Source of the DNA: Escherichia phage RB32
Sequence record: NC_008515.1
Reading direction: 5' to 3' (one strand)
DNA: 64,000 nucleotides
Part shown: positions 2,418-33,297 of the stretch, piece by piece
Layout: each line of letters opens with the position of its first letter
Numbering within the stretch: position 1 is the stretch's first letter
Made by a program: the position numbers and the translations under genes
Notes under the pieces: model-generated
The model's database searches: none
What the model was told of the DNA's origin: nothing
The model's input: the letters and a program-made list of their open reading frames with translations, nothing else

Positions 2418-2447
2418 ATTATACCACATCCTTGTGGTAAAGTAAAC
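2418..2447 (-). promoter_or_regulatory. sigma70-type early promoter (-35 GTTTAC, 18-bp spacer, -10 TATAAT) reading toward rIIA.1
   Basis: minus strand reads GTTTACtttaccacaaggatgtggTATAAT upstream of the 2392 start codon. Confidence 0.5.
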
Positions 2448-4267
2448 TACTGGCTCATCCATTCTTTACGAAGGTCAGCGTTATCTCCCATGAGCATTTC
2501 AAAAAGCTCTTTCCAGTTCTCAGGAAGTTTAACAACATCATATACTGGATTTTGAATCATCTCACGATATTCAGATTTTTCCAAAGAGCCAAGTCCTTTA
2601 ATATAACGGATGCTATGTTTAGGTAGAGCATCTTTGGCACTCTCATATTCAGCGACTGTATAAAACCATTCTTGTTTTTTGCCGACCTGAGCGATGATTA
2701 CAGGAGTTTTGACAAAACGAATTCGTCCTTGCTCAAACAATTCTGGCCAATTACTAAAAAATCCGAGCAGAGAAGGATAAATGCTTCCTAGACCATCATG
2801 GTCAGCATCAGTCATAATAGCAATATTATGATAATTCAAGTTTTCAGCTTTTTCACCAAGAACTAATCCAGTGATTGCGCAAATATCAAATAGTTCTTTG
2901 TTTTTAAGCATATCAGCATATGACATACCCCAACTGTTGAGAACTTTACCACGTAATGGATAACCACCATGAAGTTCTTTATCACGAACATCAATAAGAT
3001 ATCCGATAGCCGAATCACCCTCAGTCAAGAACAATGTAGTATCAGCATCTTTACCACAAAGATTCGCTTTAATATGTTTATGAACCTTAGCTTTAGAAGC
3101 CTTTTTAGCTGCTTTAGTTTCTGCTGCTTTTTCTGCCGCCAATTTACGAGCCAAAGCAGCTTCAATAATCGGCATTAAAATTGCTTCATTATTTAGAATA
3201 GCACGTGAAATCTTTTTAGCATCAAGTTGAATATGACTACGAATTTCGCCAAATGGAGAAGTCAAACGCTCTTTAGTTTGAGAATCAAATCGCATGTTTT
3301 TCATATCACGAACAAACATAACGATAGTCAAACATTCTTTGACACGTGCTTTAGTTACATCAATTTTGAACTTACGTTTGATTTGTGGAATAAGGTCTTC
3401 ACAAATATCATCCATAACACAGTCAATGTGATGGCCACCATTCTTAGTGTGAATGTTATTCACGTAAGTTAATTGACGAAATCCATCCGGTGAACGACCA
3501 ACCGCAATAGAACAATTTTCTTGCTCTTGAACAATAGCATGTTCATCATACTGCCGTGCATATTTCTTAAAATTACCCTGAACCTTTTTACCATTAAAGG
3601 TAAATTGAATATCAGGATAAACAACAGCAAGTGTCTGGAGACGATCTAATGTAATGTCAAGATAAACTTGGGACAACTCATTAGTTTCAAATGACATAAA
3701 ATCAGGAATGAAAGTAACACGAGTTCCTTTCCATTTTCCAGGAATATCTTCCCATGATTTATTTTCCATGCCATTTGAACAACGAACTACAATATTATTT
3801 TGACCATCACCAGTTTCACCGACAAACATCACAGAAAAAATGTTTGTCAAACTAGAACCAACACCGTTCATACCGCCGGTGACGCGTTCTTTATCATCAC
3901 CGAAGTTACCACCTGCTTTTGGAATAGTCCATGCAGCAACAGGACCAGGAATTTCTTCACCGGTAGGTGTTTTAACCATCGCCTGTGGAATACCGCGACC
4001 GTTATCTTCAACTGTTACTTGATTGTTTTTAATAGTAACATTAATTTTATTTGCGAATTTAAACTTAGTACGAATACCTTCATCTACTGAGTTATCGATA
4101 ATTTCATCAATAAGCTTAACAAGACCAGGTACATACTGAACACTTTCCCATTTACCAAACAGAAAGCGCTCATGCATTTCATTAGCTGAAGAGCCAATGT
4201 ACATGCCGCTACGCTTTTTGATATGTTCAATATCGCTCAGAATTTTAATTTCATTCTTAATCATCAC
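2447..4267 (-). CDS. 39: DNA topoisomerase II large (ATPase) subunit, unsplit gp39+gp60 form
   Basis: 606-aa ORF; N-terminus MMIKNEIKILSDIEHIKKRSGMYIGS (GyrB-like ATPase), C-terminal ~150 aa correspond to T4 gp60; continuous frame, no bypass gap. Confidence 0.9.
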   Translation of the reverse strand: MMIKNEIKILSDIEHIKKRSGMYIGSSANEMHERFLFGKWESVQYVPGLVKLIDEIIDNSVDEGIRTKFKFANKINVTIKNNQVTVEDNGRGIPQAMVKTPTGEEIPGPVAAWTIPKAGGNFGDDKERVTGGMNGVGSSLTNIFSVMFVGETGDGQNNIVVRCSNGMENKSWEDIPGKWKGTRVTFIPDFMSFETNELSQVYLDITLDRLQTLAVVYPDIQFTFNGKKVQGNFKKYARQYDEHAIVQEQENCSIAVGRSPDGFRQLTYVNNIHTKNGGHHIDCVMDDICEDLIPQIKRKFKIDVTKARVKECLTIVMFVRDMKNMRFDSQTKERLTSPFGEIRSHIQLDAKKISRAILNNEAILMPIIEAALARKLAAEKAAETKAAKKASKAKVHKHIKANLCGKDADTTLFLTEGDSAIGYLIDVRDKELHGGYPLRGKVLNSWGMSYADMLKNKELFDICAITGLVLGEKAENLNYHNIAIMTDADHDGLGSIYPSLLGFFSNWPELFEQGRIRFVKTPVIIAQVGKKQEWFYTVAEYESAKDALPKHSIRYIKGLGSLEKSEYREMIQNPVYDVVKLPENWKELFEMLMGDNADLRKEWMSQ

Positions 4268-4603: not shown

Positions 4604-4971
4604 TTAAATTTAATGGCTTGAAGAAGACTAATAACTCTCAAGCGACTTCTTTCATCTTTAACTGTAAAGGAAAGAGGGTCACCAGATTTCATAGTGATAG
4701 TGCATCCAAAATCAAAATCTTCTGTAACTTCTTCGAATAGGTCAAATTCTTCATCATAAATTAGAACATTACTCTGAAAACTGTGAAGAATTTTTCCATC
4801 ATTTCCAGATGCTGTACTAATCATTGTAACATTATTACCTTTCATATCTTCAACGATAAATTCGCTTGTAGATATTACATTACTAATAGAACCATTCCTA
4901 TAAATAGCAGAAAATAGATATTTCTTTTCTTCACCTTCGCGAATGCGATATTTCTTACCGATTTTAAACAT
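4600..4971 (-). CDS. hypothetical protein
   Basis: ORF track 4600..4977; first ATG is the third codon (MFKIGKKYRI...), 4-nt overlap with downstream gene. Confidence 0.55.
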   Translation of the reverse strand: MFKIGKKYRIREGEEKKYLFSAIYRNGSISNVISTSEFIVEDMKGNNVTMISTASGNDGKILHSFQSNVLIYDEEFDLFEEVTEDFDFGCTITMKSGDPLSFTVKDERSRLRVISLLQAIKFK

Positions 4972-30656: not shown

Positions 30657-30848
30657 TTAGTCATAATAATCAGTAACAGTCCAAGCTTCATTTCTATTGG
30701 ACATTATTTTTGTATATTCTGCTTTAAATGCATTCCTAAGCATAGATTCAGTAACTATATGCTCTTCATTAGAAAAATTATTTCTCAGAATATATCGTTT
30801 TATTTCAGGAATAGTTAATAGATGCTGTCCAGTTGAATATTCTGCCAC
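30657..30848 (-). CDS. hypothetical protein (45.2 position)
   Basis: 63-aa ORF. Confidence 0.55.
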   Translation of the reverse strand: MAEYSTGQHLLTIPEIKRYILRNNFSNEEHIVTESMLRNAFKAEYTKIMSNRNEAWTVTDYYD

Positions 30849-30858
30849 AGTTCCTCCG

Positions 30859-30866
30859 TATAAATA
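30859..30866 (+). promoter_or_regulatory. T4-type late promoter box TATAAATA (gp55-dependent), plus strand
   Basis: exact TATAAATA 34 nt upstream of the HNH gene ATG. Confidence 0.5.
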
Positions 30867-30899
30867 TGTTTATCACTCGCTGTATCAAAAGGATATGTT

Positions 30900-31616
30900 A
30901 TGAATTATAAACTAATTTATGAAAAGTTAATCTCTAATGCTAAATCTCGAAAACTTGATTGCTATACTGAATCTCATCACATTATACCACGCTGTTTAAA
31001 TGGCAGCGATGATGCTTCAAACTTAGTAGATTTAACACCAGAAGAGCACTATGTAGCTCATCAACTTTTAGTAAAAATTTATCCTTCTGAACCAAAATTA
31101 GTCTATGCTGCTAACATGATGACAGTTTCTACGAAATACGCTAAACGCAACAATAAAACTTTCGGTTGGATTCGTCGTAAACTCTGGGAATTAGAAAAGA
31201 ATAAAGAATTCTCCCAGGAGACACGAAAGAAAATGTCTGATGCAGTAGCTAATAAAGCAAGACTAACTTGTCCTCATTGCGGTAAGTCTGGATTAAGCGG
31301 GAATATGAATCGTTGGCATTTTGATAACTGCCCAAATCACCCTAATCCTAAAGTTAGACCACCAATGTCTAAAGAACACAGAAATAATATCTCAAACGGG
31401 CTTAAAGCAATCGTTCTTGAAGAAACATCCTGCGAATTCTGCGGAATGATAGGCAAGAAATGCGTTATCGCAGCGCATAGAAATTTCTGCAAGAAAAATC
31501 CAAATGGACGCAAGAAAACTGAAAAGACTGGTACTTGCGTCCATTGCGGTAAAGTTACCACTTTCGGAAATTTATCAAGGTGGCATAATGATAACTGTAA
31601 ATATAAACCTAGCTAA
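30900..31616 (+). CDS. HNH homing endonuclease (free-standing, mob-like) with three C-terminal zinc-finger-like repeats
   Basis: 238-aa ORF; HNH motif ESHHIIPRCLNGSDDASNLVDLTPEEHYVAHQ; repeats CPHCGK...RWHFDNC, CEFCGM...HRNFC, CVHCGK...RWHNDNC; AGGA RBS. Confidence 0.8.
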   Translation: MNYKLIYEKLISNAKSRKLDCYTESHHIIPRCLNGSDDASNLVDLTPEEHYVAHQLLVKIYPSEPKLVYAANMMTVSTKYAKRNNKTFGWIRRKLWELEKNKEFSQETRKKMSDAVANKARLTCPHCGKSGLSGNMNRWHFDNCPNHPNPKVRPPMSKEHRNNISNGLKAIVLEETSCEFCGMIGKKCVIAAHRNFCKKNPNGRKKTEKTGTCVHCGKVTTFGNLSRWHNDNCKYKPS

Positions 31617-33297
31617 TCTTAGCTAAACTAAATCTACCAACTTTTTCCATCTGAATATGCTGACCATATTCTTGTGGGTCATGGTCTTTATGCGAAATTA
31701 TGAAGAAGTTGGTATCCTTCAAACCATCTAAAATTTTAGCTACATTTTTAATGCCTTCAGCATCAAATGCACCATCATACACTTCATCAAGAAATAAACA
31801 ACTTATTTTAACACCTGAAACTTTTTCAGCAATATCACGCCAAGTAAATAAAAGAGCAATATCAATTCGCGCTTTTTCACCTTGACTAAATGAAGCATAA
31901 CTAAAATCTTCACGACCACGGGATTTAATTGTCTCATTAAATTCTTCATCTAATGTAAACACATAATCTGCTTCCATTATTTTAAGATAATGGTTAATCT
32001 GCTTATTAAATAATGGAATGTACTTTTTAATAATAGCACCTTTAATACCAGAATCTTTGAGCATATCAGTCAAAATTCCTCGGTGGTATTTTTCCATTAC
32101 TAAATTAGTTTTTGTCTTAACAATTTTATCAAGTTCTTCTTGAAGCAGTGCTATTTCATCAGCATGGTCAATAAATTCAGAAGATGCTTTTTCTATAGCC
32201 GCTTTAACTTTTTTAGCTTTATCTACCGTCGTGATTAGAGATTGCTTTTTATTGCGAATATCATTTGCCAACGTCTGCTGGGTTTTAATATTATCTCGGT
32301 ATTCATCAACAAGAACTTTTAAATTATCACGATGTGTTGAAAGCTGTTCAAATGAATGTGTGCATTCAGAAACTTTATCTTTAATTTTAGAAACAACTTT
32401 ATCACCGGAACTTAATTGTGACAAACAGGTTGGACATAATCCACCTTCGTGATACATATTAATGACTTTATTATACGAGTCAATTTTTGATTTAATTAAA
32501 ACTGCTTCTTGACCGATTTTATTAAATGCATCAGTAGGGTCTTCATCCAAAACAATATTAACTAATCTTTCATTAGCTTCTTCTATTTCCGATTTTAGCG
32601 TTCTAGCTTCTTTTGCCAAATCATCATACATATTTTGCAGACGAGTAAGGTTGTCACCCGTTAATTTTTTCTGGCGTTCAACGTTATCATTATATATTTT
32701 AATTTGTTGGATAATACTATCTTTTTTAACATCAAGCACTTGGTTTTGTGAATTTAATTCACGTATTAGTGCTTTATTAAGCTTATCCATTTCAGCTAAT
32801 GTTCCTACCTCAAGCAGGTCTTCCACAAGCTTTCTTCGCGCAGGGGTCGACAAACCCATGAAAGGGGTATACCCTGCTGTACCAAGGACAACAATCTGCT
32901 TGAAACTGGCATATGACATTCCGATAAGCTGTTCAAATTCTGCTTGGAAATCTTTACTGCTGGCAGATTCATTAAGACGTGTACCGTTAATGGTGATTTC
33001 AAAAACGTTCGGTTTTTGTCCTCTTTTGATATAGTACTTTTTCTCATCATATTCCATCCACAGTTCAACTAAAAGTTCTTTCTTATTTGTGCTGTTTATT
33101 AATTGACCTTTCTTTACATCACGAAATGGCTTACCAAAAAGCCCAAATGTGATGGCTTCTAACATAGTAGACTTACCACCGCCATTTCGTCCAGTAATAA
33201 GAGTTTTTTGAACCTTATCTAATTGAATGTCAATAGGATTTCCACCTACTGACATTATATTTTGATACCTAACTCGGTTTAGTTTAAAATTCTTCAC
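31609..33297 (-). CDS. 46: recombination endonuclease subunit (Rad50/SbcC-like)
   Basis: 562-aa ORF, Walker A GRNGGGKST, central coiled coil with CPTC zinc hook. Confidence 0.9.
   Translation of the reverse strand: MKNFKLNRVRYQNIMSVGGNPIDIQLDKVQKTLITGRNGGGKSTMLEAITFGLFGKPFRDVKKGQLINSTNKKELLVELWMEYDEKKYYIKRGQKPNVFEITINGTRLNESASSKDFQAEFEQLIGMSYASFKQIVVLGTAGYTPFMGLSTPARRKLVEDLLEVGTLAEMDKLNKALIRELNSQNQVLDVKKDSIIQQIKIYNDNVERQKKLTGDNLTRLQNMYDDLAKEARTLKSEIEEANERLVNIVLDEDPTDAFNKIGQEAVLIKSKIDSYNKVINMYHEGGLCPTCLSQLSSGDKVVSKIKDKVSECTHSFEQLSTHRDNLKVLVDEYRDNIKTQQTLANDIRNKKQSLITTVDKAKKVKAAIEKASSEFIDHADEIALLQEELDKIVKTKTNLVMEKYHRGILTDMLKDSGIKGAIIKKYIPLFNKQINHYLKIMEADYVFTLDEEFNETIKSRGREDFSYASFSQGEKARIDIALLFTWRDIAEKVSGVKISCLFLDEVYDGAFDAEGIKNVAKILDGLKDTNFFIISHKDHDPQEYGQHIQMEKVGRFSLAKIS

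Follow-up and report, generated by a model that had tools for sequence, protein, structure and literature searches.

Free-standing HNH genes of the mob type are a textbook feature of the T-even phages (PMC2988022), and the free-standing endonucleases of T4 generally cut in the conserved gene next to their own (PMC2988022, Table 1). MobE introduces a strand-specific nick about 120 nt inside nrdB, and the sequence flanking the nick is co-converted (PMC2790892). The mobE gene has no promoter of its own; it has the orientation of nrdA and shares a transcript with it, and an internal terminator restricts its expression (PMC2790892). Dimers of I-TevIII make a double-strand break, alanine mutants of its residues H26, H27, N39 and H48 have been assayed for cleavage, and its CX2CX12-13HX3C motifs hold one zinc each and are required for DNA binding (PMC1865063). 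Three T4 intron endonucleases, I-TevIII included, are driven by middle and late promoters; the operator of I-TevI mimics its homing target and the enzyme moonlights as a repressor (PMC2988022). For segD no dedicated promoter can be identified, and its transcripts are presumed to be extremely scarce (PMC2988022). Two mob-like HNH genes had earlier been counted in phages of the RB32 type (PMC2993671, Table 5).

The gene described here lies in a 64,000-nt stretch of the genome of Escherichia phage RB32 (NC_008515.1), referred to below as the window, in which all positions are numbered. Very probably it belongs to the T4 mob type, as a free-standing ('intronless') gene for an HNH homing endonuclease that has been inserted, in reversed orientation, where genes 45.2 and 46 meet. 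Genes of this kind are already known, and this one is an ordinary case of a familiar class of mobile elements in phages; it adds one intact and already annotated mob-type homing endonuclease to the T-even inventory, which in itself amounts to little beyond book-keeping. The 2.1-kb region around the ORF is 100% identical to Enterobacteria phage RB33 (KM607001), in which the ORF, RB33_055, was deposited as 'putative site-specific intron-like DNA endonuclease'. Labels of the homing or mob-like endonuclease type are attached to this ORF in dozens of other records as well, such as the 'mob-like endonuclease' of KIT01, while a literature search found no published characterisation of the protein.

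A probable mobile cassette at the 45.2/46 junction

The gene and its 3' boundary are positioned as follows.

30900..31616, plus strand: homing endonuclease ORF, RB33_055, with ATG start and TAA stop, 238 aa
31609..31616, both strands: stop codons of the endonuclease gene and gene 46, convergent and overlapping by 8 nt

Its neighbours on either side, 45.2 and 46, are minus-strand genes, and the ORF is read in the opposite direction. The window contains 51 ORFs of at least 150 aa, and this is the sole plus-strand one that does not lie over a minus-strand ORF, and a preliminary description of the DNA had singled it out as one of only two convincing plus-strand genes and had put the overlap with the gene 46 stop at exactly the 8 nt seen here. 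No paralogue of the ORF was found within the window.

When a carrier is defined as a record with the gene at 95% nucleotide identity or more, about 57 of the roughly 600 T4-like phage records that contain the region are carriers, and in T4 and most of the others nothing but a 55-bp spacer separates 45.2 from 46. T4 thus has no gene at this position, as the preliminary description supposed, and the sporadic occurrence, as opposed to presence in all T-even genomes, bears out the proposal of a mobile insertion. The gene is presumably mobile to this day.

A comparison of the junction with genomes lacking the ORF had been suggested as a check; an alignment of seven carriers with seven non-carriers reveals sharp edges at 30842/30843 and at about 31802. 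The non-carriers match RB33 up to 30842 save for scattered single-base polymorphisms (the left flank is 97-98% identical), and beyond about 31802 the closest non-carriers are identical again. Between these edges the whole T4 spacer is replaced in the carriers. The left edge, 30842, falls two codons into 45.2, the start of which is rewritten.

30843..30848, minus strand: rewritten gene 45.2 start, GTG-GCA in place of ATG, at the left cassette edge (carrier/non-carrier alignment)

The start of gp45.2 reads V(M)AEYS in RB33 and MEYS in T4. The cassette is about 960 bp long (30843-31802) and comprises the endonuclease gene, the start of 45.2 and the last 64 codons of gene 46; it provides a clean, sharp-edged natural footprint of co-conversion. 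The endonuclease copies are under strong purifying selection, with a pN/pS of 0.04-0.09 among seven Tequatrovirus copies, all of them intact.

A linked tract at the end of gene 46

The right-hand part of the cassette lies within a conserved gene.

31612..31802, minus strand: last 64 codons of gene 46, from LFLDEV to the C-terminus, a co-inherited tract (carrier/non-carrier alignment)

All fixed differences between carriers and non-carriers outside the insert are found within 31623-31800. Amino acid identity to the gp46 of non-carrier Tequatrovirus phages is 61-71% in the tract and 98-99.5% in the 426 aa upstream of it. The RB33-type tract (at least 95% identity) occurs in 57 records, the same count as that of the gene carriers. 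It includes LFLDEV and an ISHKD motif, and its C-terminus is 2 aa longer. From general knowledge of Rad50 and ABC ATPases, we take LFLDEV to be Walker-B-like. The gp46 protein is a Rad50-like ATPase and part of the gp46/47 recombination nuclease (T4 record annotation).

Judging from these alignments, the foreign-looking tract of about 190 bp, to which the gene is always linked, is most likely the place where the cleavage target or an immunity polymorphism is to be sought, and the footprint narrows the candidate target down to the final 190 bp of gene 46. This fits the earlier prediction of a target in the 45.2/46 region. Linkage between tract and gene is the pattern expected of a homing cassette with a co-converted donor flank, or of a resistant target that has been kept; it could equally reflect simple hitch-hiking of gene 46 sequence from a foreign donor, the tract then not being the target. 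Across genera, only a single column in a sample of 11 genomes is fixed between all carriers and all non-carriers; the fixed-difference signal exists only within a genus.

Orthologues in other phage lineages

Diverged relatives of the gene are found in five other lineages, listed here with their amino acid identity to the RB33 protein.

KIT01, Dhakavirus: 65%
MHG19, Yersinia phage (Tevenvirinae): 64%
FL31, Mosigvirus: 58%
EC-F1, Pseudotevenvirus: 49%
Squirrel, Klebsiella phage: 43%

All five are found at the 45.2/46 junction, likewise reversed, and overlap the end of gene 46 by 4-14 nt, save in KIT01 where a 5-nt gap separates the two. In the KIT01 and Squirrel groups, the two lineages surveyed in this respect, carriers and non-carriers coexist. 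The divergence of the endonuclease between genera is about that of the flanking gp46, and greater in Mosigvirus. Recent transfer between genera is not supported, since endonuclease identity tracks that of the flanking gp46 or falls below it. The lineage looks old and faithful to the 45.2/46 locus, as far as these comparisons go, and so long a residence could mean that the gene is retained for another benefit.

The site itself varies between phages. The spacers of T4 and Mosigvirus are unrelated, and the non-carrier Dhakavirus and Klebsiella phages have no spacer, genes 46 and 45.2 abutting or overlapping. In the Slopekvirus VAC66 a different, unrelated HNH gene is situated in the same junction. 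Because diverged orthologues and this unrelated gene are found in one place, the junction looks like a recurrent entry point for genes of this kind.

Domain architecture of the protein

The N-terminal part of the protein corresponds to the nuclease.

30900..31199, plus strand: HNH (beta-beta-alpha-Me) catalytic domain, aa 1-100 (MobE homology and invariant residues)
30975-30980, 31020-31022 and 31047-31049, plus strand: catalytic residues H26/H27, N41 and H50, respectively (I-TevIII alignment)

The HNH motif ESHHIIP...SNLVDLTPEEHYVAH, pointed out in the preliminary description, is intact and its histidines are undisrupted. E24, H26, H27, N41, H50 and H54 are invariant in an alignment of 78 family members, and H26, H27, N41 and H50 align with H26, H27, N39 and H48 of I-TevIII. 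The N-terminal ~140 aa are MobE-like (141 aa aligned with RB3 MobE at 36% identity, E = 2e-23), and a tblastn search of phage genomes aligns the protein over its full length with T4-type mobE loci at 34-35% identity. The profile PHROG 655, 'homing endonuclease', is matched over the full length (E = 6e-69), and a large protein collection holds 2304 homologues. The profile match, the homology to MobE and the retained catalytic residues together uphold the earlier identification as an HNH homing endonuclease, and the conservation of the motif suggests that the protein is an active nuclease.

General domain models respond less strongly. The Pfam HNH model PF01844 scores 16.9 bits (E = 0.0072), under its curated cut-off of 21.4, and the NCBIfam IscB model, matched in its HNH region (E = 3.6e-5), stays far under its own; the Pfam HNH model fits the mob-type subfamily poorly. 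A confident AlphaFold model computed from the family alignment (mean pLDDT 93.7) predicts strands at 24-27 and 42-45 followed by a helix at 47-60; it has a beta-beta-alpha core in the HNH part and three beta-beta-alpha finger units. Fold searches with the full-length model gave no significant global match, only weak local ones to HNH domains and zinc-finger arrays, probably a consequence of the elongated multi-domain chain that the model predicts, and a sequence search for relatives of solved structure found none. As the Pfam and structure searches are weak, it is the conserved motifs and the homology in pairwise and profile comparisons that carry the family assignment.

The C-terminal half is a string of small units.

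31209..31244, plus strand: NUMOD3-like helix 1, aa 104-115, SQETRKKMSDAV (helix 106-117 in the model)
31269..31331, plus strand: zinc finger 1, CX2CX12HX3C, aa 124-144 (matches I-TevIII finger 2)
31365..31400, plus strand: NUMOD3-like helix 2, aa 156-167, MSKEHRNNISNG (helix 158-170 in the model, pattern resembling helix 1)
31431..31490, plus strand: zinc finger 2, CX2CX11HX3C, aa 178-197 (aligns with I-TevIII finger 1)
31536..31598, plus strand: zinc finger 3, CX2CX12HX3C, aa 213-233 (aligns with I-TevIII finger 2)

Three C-terminal repeats of about 40 aa had been proposed from the sequence; the strings quoted for them are exact, but the repeating unit is a CCHC finger of 20-21 aa. The first cysteines of successive fingers are 54 and 35 aa apart, and the spacer of finger 2 has 11 residues where fingers 1 and 3 have 12. 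Fingers 1 and 3 share 56% identity across 27 aa (pairwise E = 3e-10), and the ligands of finger 3, C213, C216, H229 and C233, are invariant among the 78 family members. Each finger is predicted by AlphaFold to fold as beta-beta-alpha with a pLDDT above 90, and none of the Pfam or NCBIfam zinc-finger models reaches its threshold. The kinship with I-TevIII emerges from direct comparison: the last 65 residues, with fingers 2 and 3, are 37% identical to I-TevIII residues 207-266 (E = 8e-8), finger 1 is 50% identical to I-TevIII finger 2 over 28 aa, and PHROG 12324, 'intron-like DNA endonuclease', matches aa 165-235. A homology search thus places the fingers in the same type as those of I-TevIII, which speaks for the earlier suggestion that the repeats are a DNA-recognition module.

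A degenerate NUMOD3-like helix stands ahead of finger 1 (SQETRKKMS) and of finger 2 (SKEHRNNIS). Helix 1 gives a weak match to Pfam NUMOD3 (E = 0.14, under the cut-off) and helix 2 is not detected by Pfam; relatives of the protein have bona fide NUMOD3 repeats in this part, in place of the fingers. The combination of a MobE-like nuclease with three fingers of the I-TevIII type illustrates the domain shuffling that has been proposed for these enzymes (PMC1865063).

Expression signals

The region between genes 45.2 and RB33_055 contains three elements.

30859..30866, plus strand: T4-type late promoter box TATAAATA (exact match)
30867..30889, plus strand: conserved 5' leader TTTATCA-CTCGCTGTATCAAA (aligned orthologous loci)
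30890..30893, plus strand: Shine-Dalgarno AGGA, 6 nt before the ATG (sequence reading)

The late promoter box is exact, as had been noted, and is separated from the ATG by 33 nt, one fewer than the 34 nt given before. The octamer is scarce in the window, with 6 copies where shuffled sequences lead one to expect 11 +/- 3.3, and this under-representation is what makes a box 33 nt before a start codon meaningful. Its TAAATA core is invariant across six orthologous loci from different phage lineages, and the box lies immediately next to the gene 45.2 Shine-Dalgarno sequence of the opposite strand. The AGGA ribosome-binding site that had been noted is present, and AAGGA is conserved in KIT01, MHG19 and FL31. 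Going by the promoter box, the endonuclease gene would be expressed late. No intrinsic terminator was found after the ORF, and a late transcript would hence run antisense into gene 46.

The leader is better conserved than the coding sequence among RB33, KIT01, MHG19 and FL31, and a leader element TTTATCAGTCGCTGTATCAAAT is kept upstream of the ATG. RNA folding of the leader (z = -0.02) and of the 3' overlap region (z = -1.27) is no better than that of shuffled sequences. An operator that mimics the homing site in the manner of I-TevI was considered as an explanation of the leader, which matches TCGCTG[T/A]ATCAAAA in 13 of 14 positions in the non-carrier gene 46 allele of APTC-EC-2A and phiD1, 152 nt from the gene 46 stop and inside the linked tract. 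The idea is not supported and the match is probably due to chance: the whole 27-nt leader element agrees with the non-carrier allele at 16 of 27 positions, no better than shuffles, a local alignment of the leader with the junction region of T4 has a lower score than the mean of the shuffles, and the 13/14 match is absent from the T4-type allele and from non-carriers belonging to the genera of FL31, KIT01 and the Klebsiella phage.

Proposed mechanism and alternative explanations

The features above can be combined into a homing cycle. The gene would be transcribed late in infection from its own TATAAATA promoter. The C-terminal module, in which two NUMOD3-like helices and three CCHC zinc fingers of the I-TevIII type are arranged as beads on a string, would bind a long site in co-infecting relatives that do not have the gene, and the N-terminal HNH domain would cut nearby, nicking one strand as MobE and MobA do, or alternatively making a double-strand break, should the protein form dimers as I-TevIII does. 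The most probable place for the cut would be the final ~190 bp of gene 46. Repair by recombination with the carrier genome would then copy the cassette of about 960 bp (30843-31802) into the recipient, and the variant gene 46 tract would presumably give carriers immunity. The binding of an extended site and the nick or break nearby are proposed by analogy with MobE and I-TevIII, and the candidate target is suggested by the linked tract.

A different target is conceivable for a real homing endonuclease, namely the 46/45.2 junction itself, which the insertion would destroy as happens with intron-encoded enzymes, the 190-bp tract being merely co-converted donor DNA. This is possible, though we consider it doubtful. 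The whole T4 spacer is replaced in carriers, the abutting or overlapping genes of the non-carrier Dhakavirus and Klebsiella phages define an insertion point, and the other HNH gene in the Slopekvirus VAC66 hints at a preferred entry point. However, the spacer is not conserved between genera and yet the endonuclease lineage sits at the same place in them, the characterised free-standing T4 endonucleases cut inside a conserved neighbour (PMC2988022, Table 1; PMC2790892), and the perfect tract-gene linkage across 57 records is more readily understood if a recombinant with a sensitive tract is eliminated. That the protein is instead a resident, effectively domesticated nuclease which no longer homes and is kept for a benefit to the phage, for example the partial exclusion of competing relatives or the stimulation of recombination at the gene 46 locus, seems quite unlikely. 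The strong purifying selection is compatible with such a role, as is an inter-genus divergence like that of the neighbouring genes, suggesting that the gene has long been inherited vertically; moreover, T4 endonucleases contribute to the exclusion of T2 (PMC2993671), and a recent report links SegB to an adaptive role (PMC13096335). Against domestication, only about 10% of the closely related Tequatrovirus genomes are carriers, and the flanks of non-carriers are 98-99.5% identical up to sharp cassette boundaries. Sparse carriers and sharp boundaries point to recent gain or loss by gene conversion, not to a fixed beneficial gene, and in any case exclusion and homing are not mutually exclusive.

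It is highly improbable that the product is a regulator which binds DNA through its zinc fingers and whose HNH-like fold has lost catalysis, or that the ORF is unexpressed. The Pfam HNH score under the curated cut-off and the conserved 5' leader could be read in this way, others could not detect MobE activity in vitro (PMC2790892), and the moonlighting of I-TevI as a repressor provides a precedent (PMC2988022). The four catalytic residues are nevertheless invariant across 78 homologues, the pN/pS of 0.04-0.09 indicates a protein that is made and constrained, and the test for a target-mimicking operator failed. Returning to homing with a target in gene 46, a bolder extension of it would have an old lineage at the 46/45.2 junction that stayed in place while Tevenvirinae and Slopekvirus-like phages diverged, and that repeatedly swapped the last ~64 codons of gp46 between phages. 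We regard this extension as rather unlikely. If it were true, the C-terminus of an essential recombination protein would be an endonuclease-driven mosaic hot spot, and the conserved 5' leader beside the late promoter might be a binding site for autoregulation.

Comparison with known endonucleases

MobE, encoded in T4 and RB3 between nrdA and nrdB, is likewise the product of a free-standing HNH gene in the spacer between conserved genes, is likewise sporadic among the T-even phages and is likewise accompanied by endonuclease-linked polymorphisms in the adjacent conserved gene. The two proteins share the N-terminal HNH pattern MNY...E-x-HHI-P...NLV-LT--EH, whereas the C-terminal half of MobE is without CCHC fingers and this protein has three. 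The genes differ in locus and in (candidate) target gene, and unlike mobE the gene described here is reversed, with a late-promoter box of its own and no predicted terminator.

I-TevIII of RB3 shares the catalytic residues at nearly equal positions (H26, H27, N39/N41 and H48/H50) and the C-terminal CX2CX12-13HX3C fingers, with 37% identity over 65 aa, although its N-terminal domain has only distant similarity to that of this protein. It is encoded in the group I intron of nrdB and has two fingers and a long unrelated linker (aa 60-200), in contrast to the free-standing gene and the three fingers found here. A precedent for a free-standing gene that is antisense to both of its neighbours is segD, between genes 23 and 24 of T4 (PMC2988022). 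The product of segD belongs to the GIY-YIG family and that of the present gene to the HNH family, and the exact, conserved late-promoter box sets the gene at the 45.2/46 junction further apart from segD.

States of the 45.2/46 junction

In T4 the junction between 45.2 and gene 46 is an empty spacer:

L002 (T4 locus):5248-5302, empty 45.2/46 spacer

Within this spacer lie an inverted repeat with 9-bp arms, AGAGATTAT ... ATAATCTCT, as well as the near-late-promoter sequence TATAAATT on the plus strand; in carriers of the endonuclease gene the T4-type spacer is replaced in its entirety. A second HNH gene occupies the same junction in some Klebsiella phages, in VAC66 and also in UGJNEcP4, and is both different from the RB33 gene and shorter:

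L027 (Klebsiella phage VAC66, Slopekvirus):745-1299 (-), 'putative homing endonuclease', 184 aa

The VAC66-type gene lies in the same orientation as the genes that flank it. With this additional occupant, the junction in Klebsiella phages exists in three states: empty, filled by an orthologue of the RB33 gene, or filled by the other HNH gene.

Where the endonuclease gene is absent from Dhakavirus and Klebsiella phages, the gene 46 stop and the 45.2 start overlap (L025:742 and L026:943-946), an arrangement that suggests that the two genes are translationally coupled in these phages. The insertion of the endonuclease gene has parted genes 46 and 45.2, and in RB33 the latter starts with its own ribosome-binding signal, back-to-back with the late-promoter box of the endonuclease gene:

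Window 30843-30858, GTG start of 45.2 with its own GGAGG Shine-Dalgarno sequence

Co-variation with the gene 46 3' tract

A sub-variant of the endonuclease gene is found in RB68 and ESH35 (L014 and L015), where the 237-aa product ends in ...NCKHKH versus ...NCKYKPS and the overlap with gene 46 is 4 nt rather than 8. The C-terminus of gp46 differs correspondingly (SVATIN versus SLAKIS).

Mosaicism of the last 64 codons of gene 46 (window 31612-31802; compared in L002, L006 and L019) is seen even among endonuclease-free genomes. T4-type and APTC-EC-2A-type alleles diverge strongly in this tract while the remainder of gp46 is ~98% identical, and the tract of Mosigvirus FL31 shares 82% amino acid identity with the APTC-EC-2A type. 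Such mosaic tracts may be traces left by earlier invasion followed by loss.

Late-promoter motifs and the topoisomerase gene

Counting both strands, the whole window has just 6 copies of the motif TATAAATA, compared with 11 +/- 3.3 in shuffled sequences, a scarcity that would fit selection against stray late promoters. One of these copies, at 4899 (+), falls within a minus-strand ORF and has no plus-strand gene downstream.

The topoisomerase subunit is encoded by one ORF:

Window 2447-4267 (-), gene 39, topoisomerase subunit, 606 aa

In T4 the topoisomerase gene is split into 39 and 60. Gene 39 of RB33 appears to represent the uninterrupted form; in the corresponding region of T4, mobA is inserted between 60.1 and 39 (PMC2988022, Table 1).
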